Assembly (NCBI GenBank): GCA_041661305.1
Contig: JBAZUR010000003.1
Location: 5,103 to 69,102, forward strand
Length of the DNA: 64,000 nt
Source of the DNA: Minisyncoccota bacterium
GTDB taxonomy: Bacteria > Patescibacteriota > Minisyncoccia > Phycocordibacterales > VMEP01
Direction of reading: 5' to 3'
Under the pieces are notes generated by a model that saw nothing but the letters and a program-made list of their open reading frames with translations, did not search any database and was not told where the DNA came from. The position numbers were made by a program, and so were the translations under genes. Below, piece by piece: positions 6,606-53,458 of the stretch. How positions within the stretch are numbered: position 1 is the first letter of the stretch; each line of letters opens with the position of its first letter.

Positions 6606-6935
6606 TAGGGTGTGGCCTCAAGCTAGTGAGCGAGGCCGAAGAACGGTGTGCTTCCTTGAGAGGAGAACTCAAGAGAGCAAAAATTGTGTAAAGAACATGT
6701 GTGTGGTAAATCGTTCGAAAGGATTTTTGTAGCCCATAAGCGGAGCCGCTTTCCTTCTTTTGATTTACAACAGCGAATGGCTGGTTCTTAAATGATTTTT
6801 TGACCAACCCTGTATTTAGTGTAGCAACACCACAGAAGTAGGCAAGGATAGATGGGGATAAGAAATGAAAATCGACAGTAAGTGTTCAAAAGCTTAACTT
6901 TTTTCCGTTACATGCTATAGTTTCTTTGTTTTAAT

Positions 6936-7008
6936 CCGCCCATAGCTCAGTTGGTAGAGCAGCTCCCTTTTAAGGAGAGGGTCGCAGGTTCGACTCCTGC
7001 TGGGCGGA
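6936..7008 (+). tRNA. tRNA-Lys (anticodon TTT)
   Basis: Cloverleaf folded by hand. Acceptor stem CCGCCCA/TGGGCGG, D-arm GCTCAGTTGGTAGAGC, anticodon loop CTTTTAA, T-arm GCAGGTTCGACTCCTGC. CCA is not encoded. Confidence 0.85.
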
Positions 7009-7032
7009 CAAGGTTAAACTAAATAGGCTGTT

Positions 7033-12739: not shown

Positions 12740-12956
12740 GGAGGGAGGAAAAAAAGAGGGGGGATCGGTCACGAATAATTTTGAAGACATATTAGTTCAT
12801 CGGTCACGAGTTACTAAATTTTTATTTCGCTTTGTTCGAAGTAGTTTCTCGGACATAATCAGTAATCGCCTCTCGCATTGCTATGCTCGAAACCTACACT
12901 CGCTCTTCGCGAGTTGCGGCCCGCGGTTCGGTTCCTGCCGAGACAAGATAGTAAAA

Positions 12957-12996: not shown

Positions 12997-13003
12997 TTTC
13001 ATG

Positions 13004-13075
13004 TGCCCTCGGCAGGAATCGAACCTGCATCACAAGTACCGCAAACTTGAATCCTATCCATTGAACGACGAGGGC
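13004..13075 (-). tRNA. tRNA-Arg (anticodon read as GCG, unusual)
   Basis: Minus-strand cloverleaf. Acceptor GCCCTCG/CGAGGGC, anticodon stem CAAGT/ACTTG, loop TTGCGGT, T-arm GCAGGTTCGATTCCTGC. Confidence 0.7.
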
Positions 13076-14879: not shown

Positions 14880-15308
14880 TTACTTATGATCAGCTATCTC
14901 TCTACGAAGAGCGTTGTCATAGTTTTGCATGAGGTCTAGGAACCAAAAACCAAAGAAGAACTCGCAAAACATCAGAAGGAGTCCCCATCCAAAATACGGC
15001 AGAAACACTTCCGTTGCGATGATGGTCGCCGTGAACAGGGTAAGCACAGTCACTTGGGTGTGCCAGTTTCTGTTCGGAAAAATGAAGCGGGAGATTTCCC
15101 AGCACAGCAGAAGGAAAAACAGAGGGAGTACACCAAAATTCACCCACATTTGGTCTAGAACGAACCTTACTTTTGTGGGTAAAAAGAATCCCCAGCGGTA
15201 CAGCGCTCGGGCGTGCTGGTTTTGCCTGATACCGTCGTCAATGATAAACGATAGCTTTTGAAACCAGTTCAGGTCAGGGCGGTTTGCGTATGTCGACAAG
15301 ATATTCAC
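14880..15308 (-). CDS. Hypothetical membrane protein (GC-richer)
   Basis: Three to four transmembrane segments. The overlapping ORFs in other frames are composition artefacts. Confidence 0.4.
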   Translation of the reverse strand: MNILSTYANRPDLNWFQKLSFIIDDGIRQNQHARALYRWGFFLPTKVRFVLDQMWVNFGVLPLFFLLLCWEISRFIFPNRNWHTQVTVLTLFTATIIATEVFLPYFGWGLLLMFCEFFFGFWFLDLMQNYDNALRREIADHK

Positions 15309-15389: not shown

Positions 15390-15692
15390 TTAAAATTCAC
15401 GTTTTCCTTCCCATGGGAACGTATGATAGTTGACCGTGAGTTCTTCACCAGACTCTATGTTTTTAGTTGCTATAAAATATATATTTTTACCAGTGACTGC
15501 TAACTGCATATTTGGGGTATTGCTGTGATTAGCGAACTTCCCCAACTCTGTTCGTGCGTAATCATGGTCAGGATTACCAGTATTATTTTGGTGAACAAAA
15601 GAAAGGCCGATACTTTCGTTTTCTAATATTGGTCTGGTGGAGAAGACCCCTTTTCCTGATATTGGCGAAGCTTTAATGTTGTAGTTGTTCAT
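15390..15692 (-). CDS. SET-domain protein (putative protein-lysine methyltransferase)
   Basis: SPISGKGVFSTRPI, the FANHSNTPN (NHSC-like) motif, and the post-SET-like GEELTVNY. Confidence 0.7.
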   Translation of the reverse strand: MNNYNIKASPISGKGVFSTRPILENESIGLSFVHQNNTGNPDHDYARTELGKFANHSNTPNMQLAVTGKNIYFIATKNIESGEELTVNYHTFPWEGKREF

Positions 15693-15885
15693 TGTTGCTA
15701 CTATTTAAGCGAGGGGTGAGATTCGGTCACGAGTAAATTTCCTGGCGGAAATTTCTCTCGACCCCAGCTCGCCATTTTTGCCTTTGCTTCGCAAAACAAA
15801 AATAAGGCTGTGCTTTTCGAATCTCACACGCGAGCAAAGCAGTTTGCTCGCTCCCATCCGCAGCTTTTCGCTGCGCTTCAATTTG

Positions 15886-20142: not shown

Positions 20143-20296
20143 CGCTTAAGCGAGTGTTTTTATTTGGTGCCAGCCGGAGCGCGACGGCGCGAGGCGGGGT
20201 CGAGCAAATTTCTAGCAAGAAATTATGCGTGACCACCAAAGAGCTTAAGCGAGTGTTTTTATTTGGTGCCAGCTGGAGCGCGACGGCGCGTTAACC
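20143..20296. repeat. Two direct copies of a ~50-bp unit (cttaagcgagtgtttttatttggtgccagcYggagcgcgacggcgcg) at 20143-20192 and 20247-20296. Each contains an inverted copy of the tRNA-Arg(TCT) 3' end.
   Basis: 49 of 50 nt identical between the two copies. The first copy forms a cruciform with the tRNA 3' end (ggcaccaaataaaaa...tttttatttggtgcc). Confidence 0.75.
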
Positions 20297-20324
20297 CGTG
20301 ACCTTCTCGAAGGGCTTAGTTTAT

Positions 20325-20400: not shown

Positions 20401-20563
20401 ACCAATAAACGAAACACTTTTTGTAAACGGGAAAAGTGCAACTTTTCCCTCCACCAACTGAGCTAACCGTCCTAAACAAATTTAGGGTACCGTATCTTGC
20501 AAGATAAATCAATTTGCTTAGAGAAAACTTGCTCTGTATTTAATCCCGTCTATAATTTCACAA

Positions 20564-22341: not shown

Positions 22342-22767
22342 ATGGCAACTATGAATGTAAAACTTTCTCCAGTAGATGTGGAGGCAAGAAAGAAGCTAGA
22401 TATCCGCGCGGGCGACACTGTTCGTGTGTGGACTAAAATCAAAGAAAAAGATGGCAAGACTCGCCTTCAAGGTTTTGAGGGTATAATTTTATCGCGTAAA
22501 CACGGACTTGAGTCAGGCTCTATGTTTACAGTTCGTCGCGTTGCAAGTGGTGTTGGTGTTGAGAAAATTTTTCCACTTTATTCTCCGTCTATCGATAAGG
22601 TAGAAATCATTCGTCGAGCAAAAGTTAGACGAGCAAAATTGTATTATGTTCGCGAAAAAGCAGCAAAAGAAATTAAGAGAAAAATGAGAAGCGAATTGTA
22701 TAAAGGTATTCCAATTGGAAAAGAAACAGAAGCAGAAGTAGTTGAAACAGAAACTAAGTCAGAGTAA
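22342..22767 (+). CDS. rplS: 50S ribosomal protein L19
   Basis: AGDTVRVWTKI...GFEGIILSRKHG...VGVEKIFPLYSP...RRAKLYYVRE. Confidence 0.85.
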   Translation: MATMNVKLSPVDVEARKKLDIRAGDTVRVWTKIKEKDGKTRLQGFEGIILSRKHGLESGSMFTVRRVASGVGVEKIFPLYSPSIDKVEIIRRAKVRRAKLYYVREKAAKEIKRKMRSELYKGIPIGKETEAEVVETETKSE

Positions 22768-22816
22768 GATGAAGGAGCTCACGAAAGTGAGCTCCTCTCT
22801 TTAATGGGGGAAATAT

Positions 22817-22901
22817 GCCCAGGTGGAGAAATTGGTAGACTTACTACCTTGAGGTGGTAGCGCCGCAAGGCATGGGGGTTCGAGTCCCCCCCTGGGCACC
22901 A
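22817..22901 (+). tRNA. tRNA-Leu (anticodon GAG), class II with long variable arm, CCA encoded
   Basis: Acceptor GCCCAGG/CCTGGGC, anticodon stem CTACC/GGTAG with loop TTGAGGT, T-arm GGGGGTTCGAGTCCCCC, CCA. Confidence 0.85.
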
Positions 22902-22911
22902 AAAATATAAT

Positions 22912-22937
22912 CCGGCTTCGTGCCGGTTTTTATTTTT
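22912..22937 (+). terminator. Terminator (ccggcttcgtgccgg + T-run) after tRNA-Leu
   Basis: Inverted repeat plus T-run. Confidence 0.65.
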
Positions 22938-23040
22938 GGTCTAGGGGAATCGAAAGCCGGAGTGATATTTCAAAAAGTTTTCCTCCTTACTTTTTGAAAT
23001 CACGAGGTGGGGTCGAGAGTACTTATGAGCGAAGCGAATT

Positions 23041-23074
23041 AGTAACTCGTGACCGAGTCCCCCCCCTTGGGCAC
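23041..23074. repeat. Duplicate of the tRNA-Leu 3' end (cgagtccccccccttgggcac) fused to the junction motif ttagtaactcgtgac
   Basis: 19/21 match to tRNA-Leu positions 22875-22898. The adjacent 18-mer is shared with 12797-12825 (reverse complement) and, partially, with 15736-15750. Confidence 0.7.
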
Positions 23075-23283
23075 AAAGCGTTAAGAAAACATGCTAGGGA
23101 TAGCATGTTTTTAGCTTTGTGAGGCGGAGGTCGACGGACCGAGCCGGGCCGTCCACAGGTGTCCATCAACCACCGATGGACTTCGCGAAAATTTTCAGCA
23201 GAAAATTATCTGTGACCCAAAAACACAATAATGGACATGGCTAAGAAATTTTTACGAGAGACGACGAGTAAAAATGTTCTTAG

Positions 23284-23296
23284 TCGAGCCCCCCCC
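23284..23296. repeat. Second degenerate copy of the tRNA-Leu T-arm/acceptor (tcgagcccccccc)
   Basis: Short match to the tRNA-Leu 3' region, followed by a T-run. Confidence 0.4.
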
Positions 23297-23354
23297 TTTT
23301 TTTTATACAAAAAACAAAGGACCCCTTACGGGGTCCTTACTCAAAAGGAACTTC

Positions 23355-23822
23355 TTACTCTCTGCCGATACGGACGTCTGGCGCATGTCGTACGACATTT
23401 GTTCCCATGAAGCAGGAGAGGTGGGCGAACAGTTTTCGTTTATATACCTCTCCTGAAATTGAGGCAGCGAAGACGATGATATCTTCTCCTTTTGTCGAGA
23501 AGCCGCACAAATTACAGCTCCTTTGGAATGATGGCTCGGATACGCCGGTTATCGCCATTGTCGCCATAACAATATCGTAACGAGCCTTGAAGTGCGGATT
23601 TTCGTCCAAGAAACATTTTGTGTGATGCCGTTCGGCGTGAATGTCTTTCGGGTAGAAGACTAGCACTACCTCCTTTCCAGTGGTTGATTCAAGACATTCT
23701 TTGCATGGTAATTCTCCGTGCTCACTGCCCCTAGAGACTCTCCCGTGTTTCGTTCTTTTGATCATTATGCATCTCCTTTTCTTATCGAATGAACCTTTTT
23801 TCAGCTGGCGAAGAGTATACAC
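23355..23822 (-). CDS. Hypothetical CxxC...CxxC zinc-finger-like protein (GC-rich)
   Basis: Cysteine pairs CKEC and CNLC. GC-rich relative to the rest of the window. Confidence 0.35.
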   Translation of the reverse strand: MYTLRQLKKGSFDKKRRCIMIKRTKHGRVSRGSEHGELPCKECLESTTGKEVVLVFYPKDIHAERHHTKCFLDENPHFKARYDIVMATMAITGVSEPSFQRSCNLCGFSTKGEDIIVFAASISGEVYKRKLFAHLSCFMGTNVVRHAPDVRIGRE

Positions 23823-23906
23823 CCATGTTTAATATTTTTCCATTTTATAGCTTTTAGTTAAAAAAACCCTTTGATGTTATCGCAGGGTTTTTTCCACGAG
23901 GCCTAG

Positions 23907-24593
23907 CTAGTGGTGGTGATAGTGGTCGTGCCCACAATGGTCATGACCAGTGCTTGGTTTGACTAGGAGTCGGCGCAGGGCGATGAAGAGAATGAGTCCA
24001 CCCAAAAAGAACGAAAGTATCGGATCAATGATGGTAACCCCAGTCATCCAGATAGCGATACCGCCAAATATGACAAGCACGCTTGCGCCGGTGTCGACAA
24101 CGATATGGAGCTCTTGCCACCAATGCGTTTCGTTTTTATGTTCCTCGTGCGCGTTGATGTGCATGAAGTACATAAAAAGATTCGCAACAAGACCAACAAA
24201 GCCAAGCATGATCATGTACCCCACCTGTATTTCGTGCGGGTTTGCCACTCGGTCCGGAGCTTCGATGACGATGATCCATAGAGCGACGCCGATAAGCAGA
24301 ATTGCACTGAGGTACCCGCCACGCCGGCGAAGCATTTTCTCGTCCGTACTTGTCCTGGCGCGCTTGGACACAATCATGGAAACGAAGCTCTCGGACCCAT
24401 CCACAAGCACGTGGAACGAGTCGGAAATGAGAGCCAAGCTTCCAAAGAAAATGCCACCAAGGAGTTCGACAAGGAAAAGACCAAACGAAATCATTGTGAG
24501 GCTCATGTAGTGCAGAACCTCTTCTTCGCAACGACAGTCGCTTTGCTGTCCCGTTTTAAGGAACTGACAAGCGGCAATATGGTTGTTTTGCAC
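23907..24593 (-). CDS. Cation diffusion facilitator (CDF) family transporter: transmembrane domain only, His-rich C-terminal tail
   Basis: Six transmembrane segments with CDF motifs (HVLVDGSESFVSMI, IEAPDRVANP). Ends in GHDHCGHDHYHHH and has no cytoplasmic C-terminal domain. GC-rich. Confidence 0.65.
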   Translation of the reverse strand: MQNNHIAACQFLKTGQQSDCRCEEEVLHYMSLTMISFGLFLVELLGGIFFGSLALISDSFHVLVDGSESFVSMIVSKRARTSTDEKMLRRRGGYLSAILLIGVALWIIVIEAPDRVANPHEIQVGYMIMLGFVGLVANLFMYFMHINAHEEHKNETHWWQELHIVVDTGASVLVIFGGIAIWMTGVTIIDPILSFFLGGLILFIALRRLLVKPSTGHDHCGHDHYHHH

Positions 24594-24687
24594 GAGACAC
24601 CTACCTTTCTCAAAGAGTTAAACTAGTCGAACTTTACGATTAAATTATTATTTCGTCAACCTATCTCTAAGATGATACGATTGTCTT

Positions 24688-25218
24688 ATGTTGTACACAC
24701 GAAAAGGAGACAAAGGGATGACTGGAACATTTGGCTGTGACCAAAAAATGTCTAAGAGTTCGGCTATCGCTGAGGCTCTCGGAACGCTTGATGAAATTAA
24801 TTCTTTTCTTGGTGTTTGCAAGGTGCTTTCGAGGGATTTAAAAACCGAGGAAATAATAAATAGAGTCCAACAAAATCTTTTTATCGTACAGGCAGAACTT
24901 GCTGGGTCAGACAAAACAATTGACGAAGAAAAAGTAAAAGAAGTTGAGGAGATTATTGACGGGATTGAAAAAGAACTACCTCCAATAAAAACTTTTTTTG
25001 TTTCAGGAGGGACAGAGCTTGCCTCTAGTTTTGACTTTGCGCGTACCTTATCAAGGAGAGCTGAGAGGAGAGTGGTGGCGGTTGTTGAAGAGGGAGAGGT
25101 AAAAGTTGGAGAACAAACACTCGCTTATTTAAATCGGTTATCCTCACTTCTTTACGCGCTCGCTAGACTTTCGAACAAAAATTCTGGTATAACTGAGCAG
25201 TCGCCTACATATAAATAA
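24688..25218 (+). CDS. PduO-type ATP:cob(I)alamin adenosyltransferase family protein
   Basis: YTRKGDKGMTG...IAEALGTLDEINSFLG, characteristic of the PduO/MMAB family. Confidence 0.75.
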   Translation: MLYTRKGDKGMTGTFGCDQKMSKSSAIAEALGTLDEINSFLGVCKVLSRDLKTEEIINRVQQNLFIVQAELAGSDKTIDEEKVKEVEEIIDGIEKELPPIKTFFVSGGTELASSFDFARTLSRRAERRVVAVVEEGEVKVGEQTLAYLNRLSSLLYALARLSNKNSGITEQSPTYK

Positions 25219-25232
25219 AGCGACTGATATAT

Positions 25233-25308
25233 GGTGCCTATAGTGTAATGGTTAGCACTAGAGTTTGTGGAACTCTCAGTTCGGGTTCAAATCCCGATAG
25301 GCACCCCA
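25233..25308 (+). tRNA. tRNA-His (anticodon GTG) with encoded G-1 and CCA
   Basis: G-1 + GTGCCTA acceptor pairing with TAGGCAC, discriminator C, anticodon loop TTGTGGA, T-arm TCGGGTTCAAATCCCGA. Confidence 0.85.
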
Positions 25309-25354
25309 AAATAACGAGACGAACGCGTATGCGTTCGGTGACTATATTTAGGGA

Positions 25355-25372
25355 GTGCCTATCGGGATTTGA
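25355..25372. repeat. Inverted 18-nt copy of the tRNA-His 3' end (gtgcctatcgggatttga)
   Basis: Perfect reverse complement of tRNA-His 25287-25304. Confidence 0.75.
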
Positions 25373-25469
25373 AAGACGGAGCCAGTACACAAGACGAGCG
25401 AAGCGAGTGCTTGTCGGCGAGTCCGGGGAGAAAGTTCTTAGCGAGTCTGCGAGCTTAGAAACTTGACCC

Positions 25470-25490
25470 CAAATCCCGATAGGCACCCCA
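25470..25490. repeat. Direct 21-nt copy of the tRNA-His 3' end including CCA (caaatcccgataggcacccca)
   Basis: Identical to 25288-25308. Together with the tRNA it brackets a ~165-bp GC-rich insert. Confidence 0.8.
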
Positions 25491-25540
25491 AATTCAATCC
25501 ATAACTTGACGGTTTTTGTGTTTATGGCGACACTGGGTTA

Positions 25541-32836: not shown

Positions 32837-33661
32837 ATGGCAAAGAGTTTTGATGAGATTTCAGTCCGCGTTCTCGCGAGCACCAAGGTTGACCGTGAAG
32901 CGGTTCGTGCATGGCTTGACGAGATGGGGGCCGATGAATTTGAAATCCCCACCGAAGATGCCGTTTCTGAGCCGGCGCTTCTTGTGGCACTTGCCGCTAA
33001 GCAATGCTACATGGCTTTCCAGCCCGGGCTCAACCCGAACGTCAACAAGGTTCGCAAGGATATGGTCGAGTATCTCGACAACGTTCTTGCGCAACGGCAC
33101 GGATCTGTACTTGAGCACTGTGTTTTCACTTTCGGTATCAACGGCTGTTCCAGGGTTTTCACTGGCGAGATGAATCGCCATCGCGCCGGTGTCGGTATTT
33201 CGGAACGGAGCATGCGATACATCCGTTATACCAACGTCCGTTTTTGGATGCCCGAGTGTTTTCGCGATGAGTCGGAAGACACGGAGAAGCTCCTTCGCAA
33301 GAAGCTGCTGAGCCGCGAGCTTCTCACCAAGGCTTTCGAGGGCGACGAGGAGATGATGGCAACGTTCGCCGACATCTGGAAGGAAGAGTTGTCGCCCGAG
33401 AGTACGTTCCATGCGAAGAAGGTTCTCACCTCGGCGTTTCGGCGTGGTATTGGCATGGGGATTGCCACTGGCGGTGTTTGGTCGCTTAACTTGCGCGCCC
33501 TTCGGCACGTGATCGCTTTGCGTACCGATGCTGGCGCCGAAGAAGAGATCGTCCACGTCTTCAAGAAAGTGGGCAAGATCATGATCGCCCAGGTGCCGGA
33601 ACTCTTCGGTGACTTCAAGGAAGTTGATGGGTCTCTCGTTCCGGAATACTGGAAGGTGTGA
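32837..33661 (+). CDS. thyX: FAD-dependent thymidylate synthase ThyX (GC-rich gene)
   Basis: ThyX signature RHRAGVGISERSMRY (RHR...S.RY) and VLEHCVFTFGINGCSRVFTGE. GC content is visibly higher than in flanking genes. Confidence 0.75.
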   Translation: MAKSFDEISVRVLASTKVDREAVRAWLDEMGADEFEIPTEDAVSEPALLVALAAKQCYMAFQPGLNPNVNKVRKDMVEYLDNVLAQRHGSVLEHCVFTFGINGCSRVFTGEMNRHRAGVGISERSMRYIRYTNVRFWMPECFRDESEDTEKLLRKKLLSRELLTKAFEGDEEMMATFADIWKEELSPESTFHAKKVLTSAFRRGIGMGIATGGVWSLNLRALRHVIALRTDAGAEEEIVHVFKKVGKIMIAQVPELFGDFKEVDGSLVPEYWKV

Positions 33662-33677
33662 TTTCGCTTGTTTGATC

Positions 33678-33711
33678 AAAAGCGGTGGCATTTGCCACCG
33701 CTTTCTTTTTT
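33678..33711 (+). terminator. Terminator (aaagcggtggcatttgccaccgcttt + T-run)
   Basis: Inverted repeat plus T-run. Confidence 0.75.
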
Positions 33712-33765
33712 ATGCACTACATGGTAAAAGTTTATTAGTTCAATTACACAGAGGGGTTCTTTCCA

Positions 33766-34871
33766 TGAATAAGGCTCAAGGCGCGCTTCCGCGCCAAAAG
33801 ATTCGCGAAATGATTGATTCCGGGATGATCACCTCTGTCACGAGAGAAGAGTTGATAAACCCAGCGTCACTTGATTTAACGCTGTCCGAAGAGGCGTTCA
33901 GGGTGACTGGTGTTTTTTTGCCGAGGCCAGGAGAAAAAGTTCGTGACCTGATAAGTCATCTGAATGTTTCGGTTCACGATCTTTCTAACCCAATGGAATG
34001 CGGAGTCTTATATCTTGTCCGCCTTGAACAGTATTTTCATTTGCCGACAATGGTCTACTCGTACTGCAACCCAAAGTCGACCACCGGCAGAAACGACCTG
34101 CATGTCAGGGTCATGGCCGATGGGGTTCCAAGTTTTGACGCAATGGCACCAGGTGGTTTTTGTGGTGAAGCCTGGGTACTCATCACTCCGAAATCTTTCC
34201 CGGTGATTCTTCCGGCGGGGGAGGCGGTTTGTCAGGCGCGTTTCTTTTTTTCCGACACACGCCTTTCGGAGTTTGAGCTCCAGAATCAGTTTGCGAGGCA
34301 TCAGCTACTTTATCATTTGGACGGCCGGCCGTATGAGTATAGCGAGATGCAAGTTCGCTACAACGACGGCTCAATCGTTCTAACACTCGATCTTTCCCAA
34401 GAAGTTGTTGGGTACGTGTGTCGTGGGTCAGGCAGTATTCTCGATTTCTCGAAAGGGAAAGCCTCGCATGATTCGGCAGATTTTTTTGAGCCAATTTATA
34501 GGCCAAAAAACGGCTATCTGCATTTGCGGCAGGGGTCTTTTCTTATCCTCTCAACCGCAGAGGCAATACACGTTCCGCCAGAGTTTGCTTGCGAAATGCG
34601 CGACATGGATTCACGAAACGGTGATTTCCGTGCGCACTACGCGGGGTACATCGATTGCGGATGGGGGCACGGAAAAGATGGCGAAGGAAAAGGGCGACCG
34701 CTTACTTTGGAAGTTCGTCCGTTTGAAGACCTCTTCGTTCGGCACGGACAACCGATAGCCAGAATCCGTTTCGAGCAAATGGCAGAAATGCCCGACCAGC
34801 ATTACGACAGCAAGCCGGTTTCAAATTACACAGTGCAGTCTGGGCCTAAACTCTCCAAGCACTTTAAATAA
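33766..34871 (+). CDS. dCTP deaminase/dUTPase-superfamily protein, apparently double-length (GC-rich)
   Basis: GYIDCGWGHG resembles the G.IDPGY.G motif of the trimeric dCTP deaminase/dUTPase fold. At about 368 aa it is roughly twice the normal length. Confidence 0.5.
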
Positions 34872-34880
34872 TAGTGATTC

Positions 34881-34915
34881 ACCACCGCACCCTAAAGGTG
34901 CGGTGGCTTTCTTTT
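34881..34915 (+). terminator. Terminator (accaccgcaccctaaaggtgcggtggc + T-run)
   Basis: Inverted repeat plus T-run. Confidence 0.75.
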
Positions 34916-34978
34916 ATATTTTGAAAGTGTTAGTTTTGTAATAGAAATTTTGTTTTTTCAATCAGGAGGAGTGCAAAA

Positions 34979-35641
34979 ATGAATCCTATTTATTGCGTTT
35001 TTGATGGACTGGATGGTTCAGGCAAGGGTCTTCAGCTGGATCTCCTCAGGGAACGTCTTGATCGCCACGGTATTCATAATGGCGAGCGGGTTGTTTTTAC
35101 TCGAGAACCTGGGGGAACGCCACTTGCGGAGGTAATTCGCGAGGTAATTCTCGGCCCACTCGCGAAGGAATCAACACCATTCAACAACATGCTCCTCTTT
35201 CTTGCCGCTCGTGAAGAGCTCATGAGAAAACTGGTGTTTCCGGCAATTTTGGCCGGAAAGTCAGTAATTTCTGACCGTGGTGATTCTTCCACTTTCGCTT
35301 TCCAGATTTACGGCGAGGAGAGGTTTGCACTGGAGGAGAGGTTTTGGCGGTTGCGCGAAGATATTTTTCGCCATTCGCCACTGCGCTCTAACGGTCCCGA
35401 CATTTACGTGTTTTTTGACCTTCCGCCCCTGGTTGCATATCAACGGATGGCGGGCGATTCGGCTCGCACGAAGACCCATTTCGACCTACGTCCGATTGAA
35501 TATCATGAGCGTGTTCGTGATGGGTTTAGTGATTTTGCGAGGCAATGTAGTACGGCAGTTATTGTCGACGCCAACCGAAAACCCGAAGAAGTTCACGAAG
35601 AGGTCTGGAGTATTGTTTCGGAAGAGCTTGGTTTGGCCTAG
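34979..35641 (+). CDS. tmk: Thymidylate kinase (GC-rich)
   Basis: P-loop FDGLDGSGKG, REPGGTPLAE, lid region. Confidence 0.8.
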   Translation: MNPIYCVFDGLDGSGKGLQLDLLRERLDRHGIHNGERVVFTREPGGTPLAEVIREVILGPLAKESTPFNNMLLFLAAREELMRKLVFPAILAGKSVISDRGDSSTFAFQIYGEERFALEERFWRLREDIFRHSPLRSNGPDIYVFFDLPPLVAYQRMAGDSARTKTHFDLRPIEYHERVRDGFSDFARQCSTAVIVDANRKPEEVHEEVWSIVSEELGLA

Positions 35642-50447: not shown

Positions 50448-51059
50448 TCAGTTCGTCTTGCGTACTTCAACCACGACCTGGTAGAGGTCAAATTCCGGCG
50501 ATTCGTACGAACAAATCATCGCCAGCTCCGGACAGTAGAAGTATTTCTCCATCGCCGGACGGAACGCTTCAGCTAGTTGGTTTGTGGCACGAATTTCGTA
50601 GGCCTTGAATACCCCGCCAGGCAGCTTGATGTCGCCGTATCCTACAACCTCTGCACTTCGCGTGCGTTTCTGAACCCGCCCGTTTGAGCTTTCTTGCTCA
50701 AACGATCCCTTCCAGCTATTTCCGTTTTTCATAGGAAACTGCAAGAAGTAGGAGTGCGGTTTGTAGGTTGCGTACGGGAACGGGCGAACCTTCGTGCCGA
50801 GGTCCTTGTTGAAGATGGTTTCCTTCTTTTCTTTGCCACCTTCTTCTTGGACCAAAAAAACAAAGTCCTCGCCTCGGCGTTCAAGAAACTCCGTTGTAAG
50901 ACATTCCGGCTTTTCGCGCACGTAGTAGCCGGTTTTGCACGTTTTTACCACGAGCCCCTTGGTCGGTTCCGGGTTTAAAGTGGCCGGCACTTCCTCCGCA
51001 GACACAAAAAGCGGAAAAATAAAAGCGCCGAAGGCACACACGAGCTTGATGATATTCAT
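50448..51059 (-). CDS. Hypothetical secreted protein (signal peptide; GC-rich gene)
   Basis: Signal peptide MNIIKLVCAFGAFIFPLFVSA. GC visibly above the window background. Confidence 0.5.
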   Translation of the reverse strand: MNIIKLVCAFGAFIFPLFVSAEEVPATLNPEPTKGLVVKTCKTGYYVREKPECLTTEFLERRGEDFVFLVQEEGGKEKKETIFNKDLGTKVRPFPYATYKPHSYFLQFPMKNGNSWKGSFEQESSNGRVQKRTRSAEVVGYGDIKLPGGVFKAYEIRATNQLAEAFRPAMEKYFYCPELAMICSYESPEFDLYQVVVEVRKTN

Positions 51060-53017: not shown

Positions 53018-53458
53018 ATGAAGATCTTCAAAAAAACTGTTTTTACTCTGATCGCCTTGCTCTTCGTTTTCGTCGGCGCTTCGTTTGCACAAACGAAGCT
53101 GGCGGCAGACGCGAGTGACGCAGGTAAGTCGGATGTAGCGGCAAATATTCCGGCCAACTGCGCCGCCTTTCTTGGGGCTTGGGTAGGTCGCTGGGAATAT
53201 GGCAATTACGGCGAAATGCGCCTGCAGGTTCTTGAAGTTGATACAAATTGTGTCGCCAAGGGTGCCTACGGAGGAAATACGGGGAAAGCATGGCCATACG
53301 AAGGTGCAGAAATCAAGGCCGACAAGATGTCCTGGCTTTGTAGCAAAGCCAGGACGGGGACATGTGTCTTCGAAAATCACGGCGATACGCTTTGGGCAAA
53401 CTACCACGATCCTTCCGGTGGCAAGAACAACGGCGTTTTCAAGAAAGTTGCCCAGTAA
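53018..53458 (+). CDS. Small secreted protein (signal peptide; strongly GC-rich gene)
   Basis: MKIFKKTVFTLIALLFVFVGASFAQT signal peptide. Followed by a strong terminator. The overlapping ORFs on other frames look like GC artefacts. Confidence 0.45.
   Translation: MKIFKKTVFTLIALLFVFVGASFAQTKLAADASDAGKSDVAANIPANCAAFLGAWVGRWEYGNYGEMRLQVLEVDTNCVAKGAYGGNTGKAWPYEGAEIKADKMSWLCSKARTGTCVFENHGDTLWANYHDPSGGKNNGVFKKVAQ

Follow-up and report, generated by a model that had tools for sequence, protein, structure and literature searches.

Positions 22902 to 24640 of the 64-kb stretch of DNA analyzed here (referred to as the window) fill a variable slot between a tRNA-Leu(GAG) gene and the gene for a cobalamin adenosyltransferase (CobAT), and three different things lie inside this slot. 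These would be a tandem series of noncoding units that trail the tRNA (22902-23300), an orphan gene for a protein with CxxC motifs, and a gene for a short cation diffusion facilitator (CDF) that has long resided there. We give this overall explanation, i.e., that tandem units, a variable CxxC orphan gene, and a vertically inherited short CDF share one slot, a probability of about 0.68. An initial annotation of the same DNA had described a small genomic islet, with a truncated CDF gene for metal resistance and the CxxC gene as its cargo. Our analysis partly supports that description, but the claims at its center do not hold.

The window comes from a Paceibacteria (Parcubacteria) genome of the candidate phyla radiation (CPR). 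It has a GC content of ~39% and seven tRNA genes predicted by ARAGORN, and its L19 protein is 84% identical to that of Parcubacteria LiPW_30. Loci fetched for comparison, mostly from relatives, are labeled with L-numbers (e.g., L001 to L108); one of them, L007, is a contig near-identical to the window. Across 26 related Paceibacteria loci, the backbone RluD-L19-tRNA-Leu(GAG)-slot-CobAT-tRNA-His is kept. The tRNA-Leu gene itself (22817-22901, + strand; anticodon GAG, CCA encoded; ARAGORN prediction; Rfam tRNA model, 49.2 bits) has a location after L19 that is conserved among relatives. The conserved right border of the slot is the PduO-type CobAT gene (24688-25218, + strand; PF01923, E = 8.7e-47), assigned also by synteny, and beyond it lies tRNA-His (25234-25308, + strand). 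The slot ranges in size from 0 to 20 bp, where tRNA-Leu abuts CobAT (L023, L032, L049, and L056), up to ~2.1 kb, and its contents differ among the 26 loci, with unrelated genes in different lineages. We conclude that the slot downstream of tRNA-Leu is a real variable site. In the window, it holds only two credible open reading frames (ORFs), those for the CDF and the orphan, putative zinc finger protein, both on the minus strand.

Duplicates of the tRNA-Leu 3′ end, which the initial annotation had pointed out, do exist. The first (23053-23073, + strand) matches the tRNA at 19 of 19 positions with a 2-nt insertion, and its alignment score of 32 is above that of any of 300 shuffles (maximum, 24; 99th percentile, 18). 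The second (23284-23297) matches at 13 of 14 positions, with a borderline score of 23. Both sit in a 450-bp noncoding stretch ahead of the genes, and no further copy above shuffle level was found distal to the genes, between 23300 and 25230.

The copies are parts of units with the plan X-L-X′-C-X. Here, X stands for the tRNA 3′ end and X′ for a copy of it in inverted orientation, L denotes the loop of a terminator hairpin, and C denotes a conserved core of two hairpins. The tRNA gene is followed by the terminator hairpin, with a palindrome that often reaches into the 3′ strand of the acceptor stem. After the terminator comes the inverted copy of the tRNA 3′ end (e.g., GGGGACTCGAA) and then the core, with its motifs in the order AAG.CGGAG, hairpin, CGAG..GGGGTCG.GA, second hairpin, and ..GTGACC. 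A direct copy, which runs from the middle of the T-loop to the discriminator base, completes the unit. When X′ pairs with the downstream X in a single strand, it closes a three-way junction of ~90 to 155 nt; with the terminator hairpin and the tRNA-end copy included, the unit measures ~130 to 230 nt.

Behind tRNA-Leu, these parts can be followed through the whole noncoding stretch. An extended terminator palindrome (22898-22940; ACCAAAAATATAATCCGGC / GCCGGTTTTTATTTTTGGT; inverted repeat I3, 19 nt, 89% complementary, 5-nt loop) takes in the last tRNA bases with its ascending arm and contains a terminator-like site (22912-22926) followed by a T run. Unit 1 (22943-23074, + strand) folds into a three-way junction (RNAfold, −44.7 kcal/mol; z = −2.84) and scores 86 bits (E = 4.5e-25) with R1, a covariance model built from 12 units, of which unit 1 was one. 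In its helix P1, an inverted copy of the tRNA T-loop/T-stem is paired with the first direct copy, which runs from mid T-loop to discriminator base and supplies both the 3′ strand of P1 and the tail of the unit; P2 has a G.A-type internal loop, and P3 consists of GGGGUCG.GAG...CUCGUGACC. A second terminator-like palindrome (23072-23121; CACAAAGC...GCTTTGTG; inverted repeat I15, 23086-23096/23101-23111, 100% complementary) begins in the end of the first copy, forms the left part of a second unit, and has counterparts in the second units of L015 and L003, to which it was aligned. The degenerate core of unit 2 (23122-23217, + strand; AGGCGGAG..., P2 hairpin, P3 hairpin, ...CTGTGACC) has no tRNA copy after it; it gives a partial R1 match (23183-23215; 10 bits, E = 0.32) and is likewise alignable to L015 and L003. 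A remnant of a third unit (23246-23297, + strand; repeat family D1, 93% identity) is made up of a P3-type hairpin, which matches P3 of the L014 and L001 units, and the second, partial tRNA-Leu copy (TCGAGCCCCCCCCT). We conclude that positions 22902 to 23300 contain one unit that is complete plus the decayed remains of about one and a half others. Close relatives carry one to three units after tRNA-Leu, with terminator and core modules reassorted.

Several lines of evidence support the fold. Six units folded separately with RNAfold gave the same three-way junction, and RNAalifold detected compensatory changes in 17 of 22 pairs among 12 units. In an alignment of 55 sequences, 94.9% of cells were paired and all 22 pairs had double changes, a level that none of 500 shuffles reached and that was far from attained by slid controls. 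Combinations of G.U outnumbered those of A.C by 58 to 17 on the tRNA-sense strand, and hence the structure belongs to that strand. The conserved nucleotides of the junction are GAAAG, CGGAG...CGAG, GGGG, and UGACC.

A scan of the 64-kb window with R1 found four units and nothing elsewhere. Besides the one after tRNA-Leu, these were a unit after tRNA-Ser(TGA) (15709-15827, − strand; 83.2 bits; RNAfold z = −6.55), one after tRNA-Arg(TCT) that is followed by a truncated second unit (20160-20252, + strand; 41.3 bits, E = 5.2e-11), and one after tRNA-His (25362-25488, + strand; 55.2 bits, E = 2.2e-15); the tRNA-Arg(TCT) and tRNA-His units lay outside the R1 training set. Copies of the 3′ end trail other tRNAs of the window as well: an exact 23-nt direct copy lies 182 bp downstream of tRNA-His, with a 22-nt inverted copy between (repeats D2, I1, and I2), tRNA-Ser has direct and inverted partial copies, and tRNA-Val has direct partial copies. 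In 817 kb of sequence from relatives (L001 to L094), R1 identified 55 units, 52 of which were within 400 nt downstream of a tRNA on the same strand. Independently of the core, 35 of 278 tRNAs in related loci had a direct copy of their 3′ end (14 of 16 positions or better) within 450 nt downstream, most at a distance of 110 to 190 nt, and none had such a copy upstream. Rfam 15 gave no relevant match at an E value of ≤5 over positions 22700 to 25500 and no non-tRNA match at the gathering threshold in the whole window, and full-text searching of the literature found no description of tRNA-trailing units. We conclude that the units are an unannotated, unexpected, and novel part of the segment.

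Related arrangements were seen beside other tRNAs. At least two further core types follow tRNAs and are likewise flanked by inverted and direct tRNA-end copies: type B (GGGGGTCGGGGAAAC...GTTTCCCCGTGGAGG; L025 6324-6440, L056 7179-7340, L060 5827-5945, and L089 ~6670-6810) and type C (GGTGCCCAG...GAGGGAGAGATTCC; L030 3738-3870, L031, and L063). Rfam searches of the loci with these types found nothing at an E value of ≤0.05. Four R1 matches had no nearby ARAGORN tRNA (L038 10051-10144, + strand; L043 2659-2756, + strand; L064 2334-2450, + strand; and L108 2825-3187, − strand). The tRNA-Leu expected in L064 was not called, and such matches are either exceptions to the tRNA link or cases of missed or cut-off tRNAs. 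In the window, tRNA-Arg(GCG) (13003-13075, − strand) has an inverted partial copy of its T-arm/3′ end just downstream (12925-12942, + strand) and no full unit by R1. Fragments of tRNA-Val(TAC) flank the gene itself (20293-20310 and 20449-20473, both − strand), with a copy of the variable loop/T-arm ~15 nt downstream and a copy of the 5′ part ~50 nt upstream. In L001, L003, L014, and L015, tRNA-Val is followed at 33 to 38 nt by a 35-nt copy of its 3′ half, with no core between.

The arrangement X-L-X′-C-X is what Campbell-type integration of a small circle (X-L-X′-C) into the X of a tRNA would leave. In our view, the odds are roughly even that each unit is a small integrative element, non-autonomous, that uses the 3′ end of a tRNA gene as its point of entry and depends on being folded, either as RNA or as single-stranded DNA. 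Mobility is favored by three observations: in relatives, dissimilar units that differ in their L and C modules stand in tandem arrays; empty orthologous sites exist (the 51-nt Arg-Val spacer of L016 and tRNA-His of L001); and for 31 of 47 units, the most similar core is found at a different tRNA species. Other points weigh against this account. An intrinsic terminator lies ahead of each core, so that a role as RNA requires read-through or a separate promoter. Gene conversion, instead of movement, could account for the likeness of cores across tRNA loci. The analysis found no recombinase partner for the units, and a mobile unit would have to retarget X and X′ jointly to a new tRNA, which is a difficulty for this reading. 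Finally, the alignment that displayed the covariation had been fitted to R1. To see whether an att copy lay farther out, or tRNA copies marked the borders of a more extensive element, the loci were searched from 0.45 kb downstream of the tRNA to their ends, and upstream; only a Val/Leu cross-match in L030 was found. A degenerate core pattern run against viral contigs gave mostly chance matches, and among the 80 loci fetched, real units were present in L108 only. L108 is an IMG/VR contig with ordinary cellular genes around its units, and no recombinase is encoded within the 3.3 kb examined. In its most specific form, which we consider rather doubtful, the mobile reading would make the units an undescribed class of structured element in Paceibacteria, namely, a tRNA-mimicking satellite of RNA or single-stranded DNA, with arms matched to its target, that integrates as a tiny circle in the Campbell manner and has no recombinase of its own.

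Also unlikely in our judgment, but a serious competitor to mobility, is the view that the units are cis-encoded trailer RNAs that benefit the host. In read-through transcripts, the three-way junction would then be closed by a mimic of the tRNA acceptor/T helix. Two partners would be open to X′, namely, the downstream copy and, in the terminator state, the 3′ end of the tRNA together with its trailer. The unit would serve as a switch or as a decoy, directed at a factor that binds tRNA 3′ ends (e.g., a nuclease of tRNA processing, the CCA-adding enzyme, a toxin, or an integrase). The strictly same-strand orientation of the units and their fixed place after the terminator would suit such an RNA, although that same upstream terminator should limit its transcription. 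Conserved junction nucleotides, covariation at all pairs, and the preference for G.U on the sense strand also speak for a host RNA, whereas the occurrence of similar cores at different tRNAs speaks against it. Units are found on four of the seven tRNAs of a streamlined genome, yet orthologous tRNAs in relatives are without them, many units are truncated, and the tandem arrays of decaying units with different modules resemble successive insertions.

Known systems share some of these features. The attC sites of integrons and the attP hairpin of CTX-phi, which is used by XerCD, are folded single-strand recombination sites, and REPINs and miniature inverted-repeat transposable elements (MITEs) are non-autonomous elements mobilized in trans. 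Like them, the units are short and noncoding, keep structure over sequence, and have inverted repeats that form a duplex in the single strand; unlike them, the units have paired arms that copy the neighboring tRNA and vary by site, together with a conserved three-way-junction core. In E. coli, 3′ETS-leuZ is a small RNA derived from the 3′ external transcribed spacer of a tRNA; it acts as a sponge by short pairing and lies before the operon terminator. It is likewise a noncoding sequence directly downstream of a tRNA gene, but the units studied here are located past the terminator, imitate the 3′ end of the tRNA, and fold into a conserved junction. Other candidates were rejected. A hammerhead or other self-cleaving ribozyme would not fit (no CUGAUGA core and no Rfam match), and neither Rfam nor ARAGORN supported a T-box, transfer-messenger RNA, or permuted tRNA. 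An IS110 bridge RNA or an OMEGA guide RNA was set aside because neither a recombinase nor a nuclease gene adjoins the units and because the matching segments, which are complementary to each other, are far too long. An ordinary MITE would have terminal repeats constant across sites; here, they are copies of the local tRNA. TIGR arrays consist of 36-nt units with two 8- to 12-nt repeats, two ~9-nt spacers, and box C/D motifs and lie beside a Nop-domain gene (PMC12045711). Set against that description, the units differ in being three-way junctions of ~100 to 150 nt placed singly after tRNAs; a TIGR (TIGR-Tas) array was dismissed on unit size and the lack of a box C/D pattern.

The second resident of the slot, the CDF gene (23907-24593, − strand), encodes a protein of 228 amino acids (aa). 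Residues 34 to 208 match the Pfam family Cation_efflux (PF01545; 88.5 bits versus a cutoff of 26.6), covering profile positions 6 to 189 of 198, and the protein is above the family threshold of TIGR01297 (101.3 bits; cutoff, 82.35). A Pfam search found no match to the cytoplasmic C-terminal ZT_dimer domain (PF16916) of canonical CDFs such as ZitB, CzcD, and YiiP, and the protein ends in GHDHCGHDHYHHH, 20 residues beyond the end of the Pfam match. Its layout is an N-terminal H/C motif, six transmembrane (TM) segments, a His-rich TM4-TM5 loop, and a His-rich C-terminal tail. Five segments are strongly hydrophobic by hydropathy, and TM2, which bears site residues, is amphipathic. The initial annotation had thus described the architecture correctly, as a six-TM domain with a His-rich tail and nothing more. 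A C-terminal domain hidden downstream in a shifted frame, which would have made the protein full length, was ruled out because there is no room for it: the gap to the next gene is 84 bp and contains a hairpin.

The same annotation had called the CDF truncated, and here the comparison with homologs points elsewhere. A search of 5.8 billion proteins returned 14 short homologs (214 to 231 aa, 44 to 99% identity), all with PF01545 only, and the more distant matches from this search (≤41% identity) were all full length with PF16916. With the distant members found in the slot of relatives included, the short family spans 206 to 246 aa. In an alignment of 16 family sequences, D58, H61, D65, and H163 never vary, and at least 90% of the sequences retain D167. 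The HxxxD motifs of transport site A, H61-x3-D65 in TM2 and H163-x3-D167 in TM5, are intact and, in an alignment with human ZnT8, coincide with its zinc site; among relatives of solved structure, ZnT8 is the best match, and ZnT7 and ZnT1 are also among the top ones. Conservation reaches at least 90% for each of the N-terminal residues H5, C9, C20, and C22, and 15 of 16 sequences have the His-rich tail. Ka/Ks, measured against five orthologs, is 0.04 to 0.16. We conclude that the short CDF is a conserved family under purifying selection rather than a truncated gene.

From these features, the protein would be expected to act as a dimeric H+/Zn2+ (possibly Co2+ or Cd2+) antiporter through the His-Asp/His-Asp site of TM2 and TM5. 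With the C-terminal domain missing, the capture of cytosolic metal would fall to the His/Cys-rich N terminus, the TM4-TM5 loop, and the tail. A caution applies to the metal, whose identity we infer from homology: the score for the ZitB equivalog NF002923 was 81 bits against a cutoff of 408, and that for the DmeF model, which was lower than the ZitB-like score, was 51.6 bits, also far under the equivalog cutoff. The neighboring CxxC protein was considered as a detached substitute for the C-terminal domain and rejected; it is not beside the CDF in L001, L003, and L094, and in L010 to L012 it occurs without a CDF.

Like the zinc CDFs ZitB, CzcD, and ZnT (PF01545 plus PF16916), the protein passes the Pfam and TIGR01297 thresholds and has HxxxD motifs in TM2 and TM5 and a His-rich TM4-TM5 loop. 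In contrast to them, it has no ZT_dimer domain and so lacks the site-C dimer clamp and the cytosolic metal sensor, and its identity to full-length CDFs is ≤41%. A CDF from Maricaulis maris is reportedly also devoid of the C-terminal domain. It, too, has only the six-helix membrane domain with a Zn-type transport site, and metal binding has been reported for it without the C-terminal domain. The family described here is restricted to Paceibacteria and tied to one genomic slot, and its additional features are a poly-His tail and, at the N terminus, the conserved motif H-x3-C-x10-C-x-C. CDFs without a cytoplasmic C-terminal domain are already in the literature (Russell and Soulimane 2012, FEBS Lett 586:4332, as referred to in PMC4995437), and the CDF of the window is an additional member of this known kind.

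The initial annotation had suggested looking for the islet at tRNA-Leu of related genomes. The short CDF occupies the slot, always divergent from CobAT, in ten Paceibacteria lineages. It is present in all six members of the window clade (L001, L003, L007, L013, L014, and L015; 68 to 100% identity) and in the same slot of four distant lineages: L094 (44%), L096 (45%), L019 (206 aa, 35%), and L027 (246 aa, 28%). Compared with L014 and L003, the proportions of changed nonsynonymous (pN) and synonymous (pS) sites are 0.11 to 0.14 and ~0.56 for the CDF and 0.08 to 0.13 and 0.49 to 0.86 for the flanking genes (UppS, RluD, L19, CobAT, NADAR, and Pif1). The CDF values are within or just above the range of the flanks, so that the gene has diverged roughly in step with its neighbors. 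We conclude that the CDF is a long-resident, vertically inherited gene of the slot. Two observations weigh against an unbroken residency: the genomes with an empty slot mean that the CDF was once gained or has been repeatedly lost, and in L001 the CDF is 68% identical, versus 85 to 89% for the flanks, for which faster evolution or allele replacement is possible.

The segment had also been described as GC rich, and its genes do depart from the composition of the window. GC content and GC content at third codon positions (GC3) are 0.505 and 0.598 for the CDF gene (z for GC3, 2.8) and 0.464 and 0.50 for the CxxC gene (z for GC3, 1.7), compared with means of 0.403 (standard deviation [SD], 0.046) and 0.343 (SD, 0.090) for 70 ORFs of the window. 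Long ORFs cover the CDF gene on both strands, as had been noted (e.g., 23950-24510, + strand, 186 aa; 24136-24531, − strand, 131 aa), as is to be expected where AT-rich stop codons are scarce. In orthologs, GC3 of the CDF is 0.54 to 0.60 even though more than half of the synonymous sites have changed (pS of at least 0.54); across lineages, it is 0.43 to 0.62, over a background GC3 of 0.30 to 0.54. An offset that is held in orthologs with so many synonymous changes is not the signature of a recent import. We conclude that the high GC3 is a stable, maintained property of the CDF gene family and that the offset is conspicuous only where the host genome has turned AT rich.

The same offset might instead be kept up by repeated allele replacement or conversion from GC-richer Paceibacteria, i.e., by ongoing horizontal exchange at a recombination-prone slot, instead of by selection or a local mutation bias on a gene passed down vertically, and we regard this as improbable. 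The slot is clearly recombinogenic, but no mobility genes are found in it. The GC content of the CDF is near constant (0.45 to 0.54) while that of the hosts spans 0.37 to 0.48, and the lower similarity of the L001 CDF than of its flanks fits an exchange; against this, pN and pS in the comparison with L014 and L003 lie in, or slightly above, the range of the flanking genes, and orientation and both neighbors are kept in ten lineages.

The third component, the CxxC gene (23355-23822, − strand), is an ORF of 155 aa. Its likely start is the ATG at 23765, which gives a protein of 136 aa; three homologs begin at the same MIKRTKHG methionine. The homologs form six clusters (50 to 100% identity), and a profile search returned five representatives among 1.84 billion proteins. 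The initial annotation had noted the CxxC...CxxC pattern, and the protein has two sets of putative ligands that are conserved in homologs: C21-x2-C24...H43...C51 and C84-x2-C87...(H/C)115-x2-C118, with C21, C24, H43, C51, C84, C87, and C118 invariant. Because pN (0.29 to 0.34) is below pS (0.68 to 0.78), this is a real, constrained gene. Pfam and NCBIfam have no family for the protein (FBP_C, with an E value of 0.027, fell below threshold). An AlphaFold2 model of modest confidence (predicted local distance difference test score, 64) has two modules of a beta-hairpin plus helix, and a Foldseek search of the model against the PDB gave zf-PARP domains as the best match, which at an E value of 1.5 is not significant and serves as a lead only. 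The gene adjoins the CDF in L007, L013, L014, and L015. It has no copy in the slots of L003 and L094, a CsgG-like gene takes its place in L001, and L010 to L012 have it without a CDF, near tRNA-Met in L011 and L012. We conclude that the CxxC gene represents a narrow orphan family and is the sole part of the segment that resembles variable cargo. Its product would be a small basic protein with two predicted zinc-binding modules; binding of nucleic acid is a guess.

The CxxC gene has an intrinsic terminator (23317-23338, − strand; 9-bp stem with 6 G-C pairs, then a T run), and the promoter scan gave a promoter-like site for it (23842-23814, − strand). Between the CDF and CxxC genes is a hairpin with flanking A and T runs (23861-23893; inverted repeat I7, 15 nt, 87% complementary, 3-nt loop) that is probably the CDF terminator, making the two genes separate transcription units. 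The divergent intergenic region between the CDF and CobAT genes (24594-24687) contains a promoter-like site for the CDF (24659-24631, − strand; TTGACG, 17 nt, TAAAGT) that was found by the promoter scan as a consensus match only.

With the components in place, the islet can be judged as a whole. It would be a recent site-specific integration at tRNA-Leu, bounded by att sites, that brought in a metal-resistance CDF minus its C-terminal domain together with the CxxC gene, and we consider this very improbable. Those parts of it that stand are the variable slot, which is empty in some distant relatives, the CxxC cargo that varies among relatives, and the atypical composition. The genes do adjoin the tRNA 3′ end and copies of that end are present, but both copies lie upstream of the genes, with none at the far end, so the repeats do not bound them, and like copies trail tRNAs that have no cargo at all. 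The ORF list and profile searches revealed no integrase or recombinase gene in the slot. The CDF, for its part, is old: it occurs in all close and several distant relatives, its divergence from L014 and L003 is like that of the flanks, and its short form is conserved, with a Ka/Ks of ≤0.16. Islands and prophages integrated at tRNA genes by tyrosine integrases share with the segment the position immediately 3′ of a tRNA, direct copies from the T-loop to the 3′ end, tandem accretion, atypical GC content, and contents that vary among relatives. The segment differs from them in having no integrase, in repeats that enclose 130 to 230 bp of noncoding DNA rather than genes, in an inverted tRNA-end copy that accompanies each direct copy, and in a CDF "cargo" that is ancient and syntenic.

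Some further features of the window and of related loci concern composition or tRNA genes. A second GC-rich block (32837-35641, + strand; GC, 0.49 to 0.55; GC3, 0.47 to 0.66) encodes ThyX, a dCTP deaminase-like protein, and thymidylate kinase, a thymidylate synthesis cluster of atypical composition. Three more ORFs with high GC3 (0.56 to 0.62) have no Pfam family: 14880-15308 (− strand), 50448-51059 (− strand), and 53018-53458 (+ strand). The first of these adjoins a SET-domain gene (15390-15692) and lies just downstream of tRNA-Ser and its unit. ARAGORN reported a suppressor tRNA with anticodon TTA at 6936-7009 (+ strand), which is more likely tRNA-Lys(UUU); canonical numbering gives the anticodon loop CU-UUU-AA, with one base between the D and anticodon stems and a 5-nt variable loop, and either register leaves one mismatch in the anticodon stem. 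Genes for LAGLIDADG-type homing endonucleases lie beside tRNAs of relatives (L003 8436-9500, L094 1337-2041, and L011 1418-2095), beside tRNA-Ser in L003 and between L19 and tRNA-Leu in L094.

Adjacency to a tRNA, tRNA-end repeats, and a shift in GC content co-occur here around a gene that has long been vertically inherited, and for this reason these hallmarks cannot be taken as evidence of recent transfer in CPR genomes. The stable maintenance of a minimal CDF without the C-terminal domain in very small genomes provides a natural experiment on the need for that domain. An unannotated structured element that is supported by covariation trails roughly half of the tRNA genes of the window and is distributed over a whole class of uncultivated bacteria. 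If mobile, the units would represent a new way of targeting tRNA genes; if functional, they would reveal a further, new level at which tRNA genes are expressed or protected in CPR bacteria. Either reading affects how tRNA-flanking repeats in metagenome-assembled genomes are interpreted.

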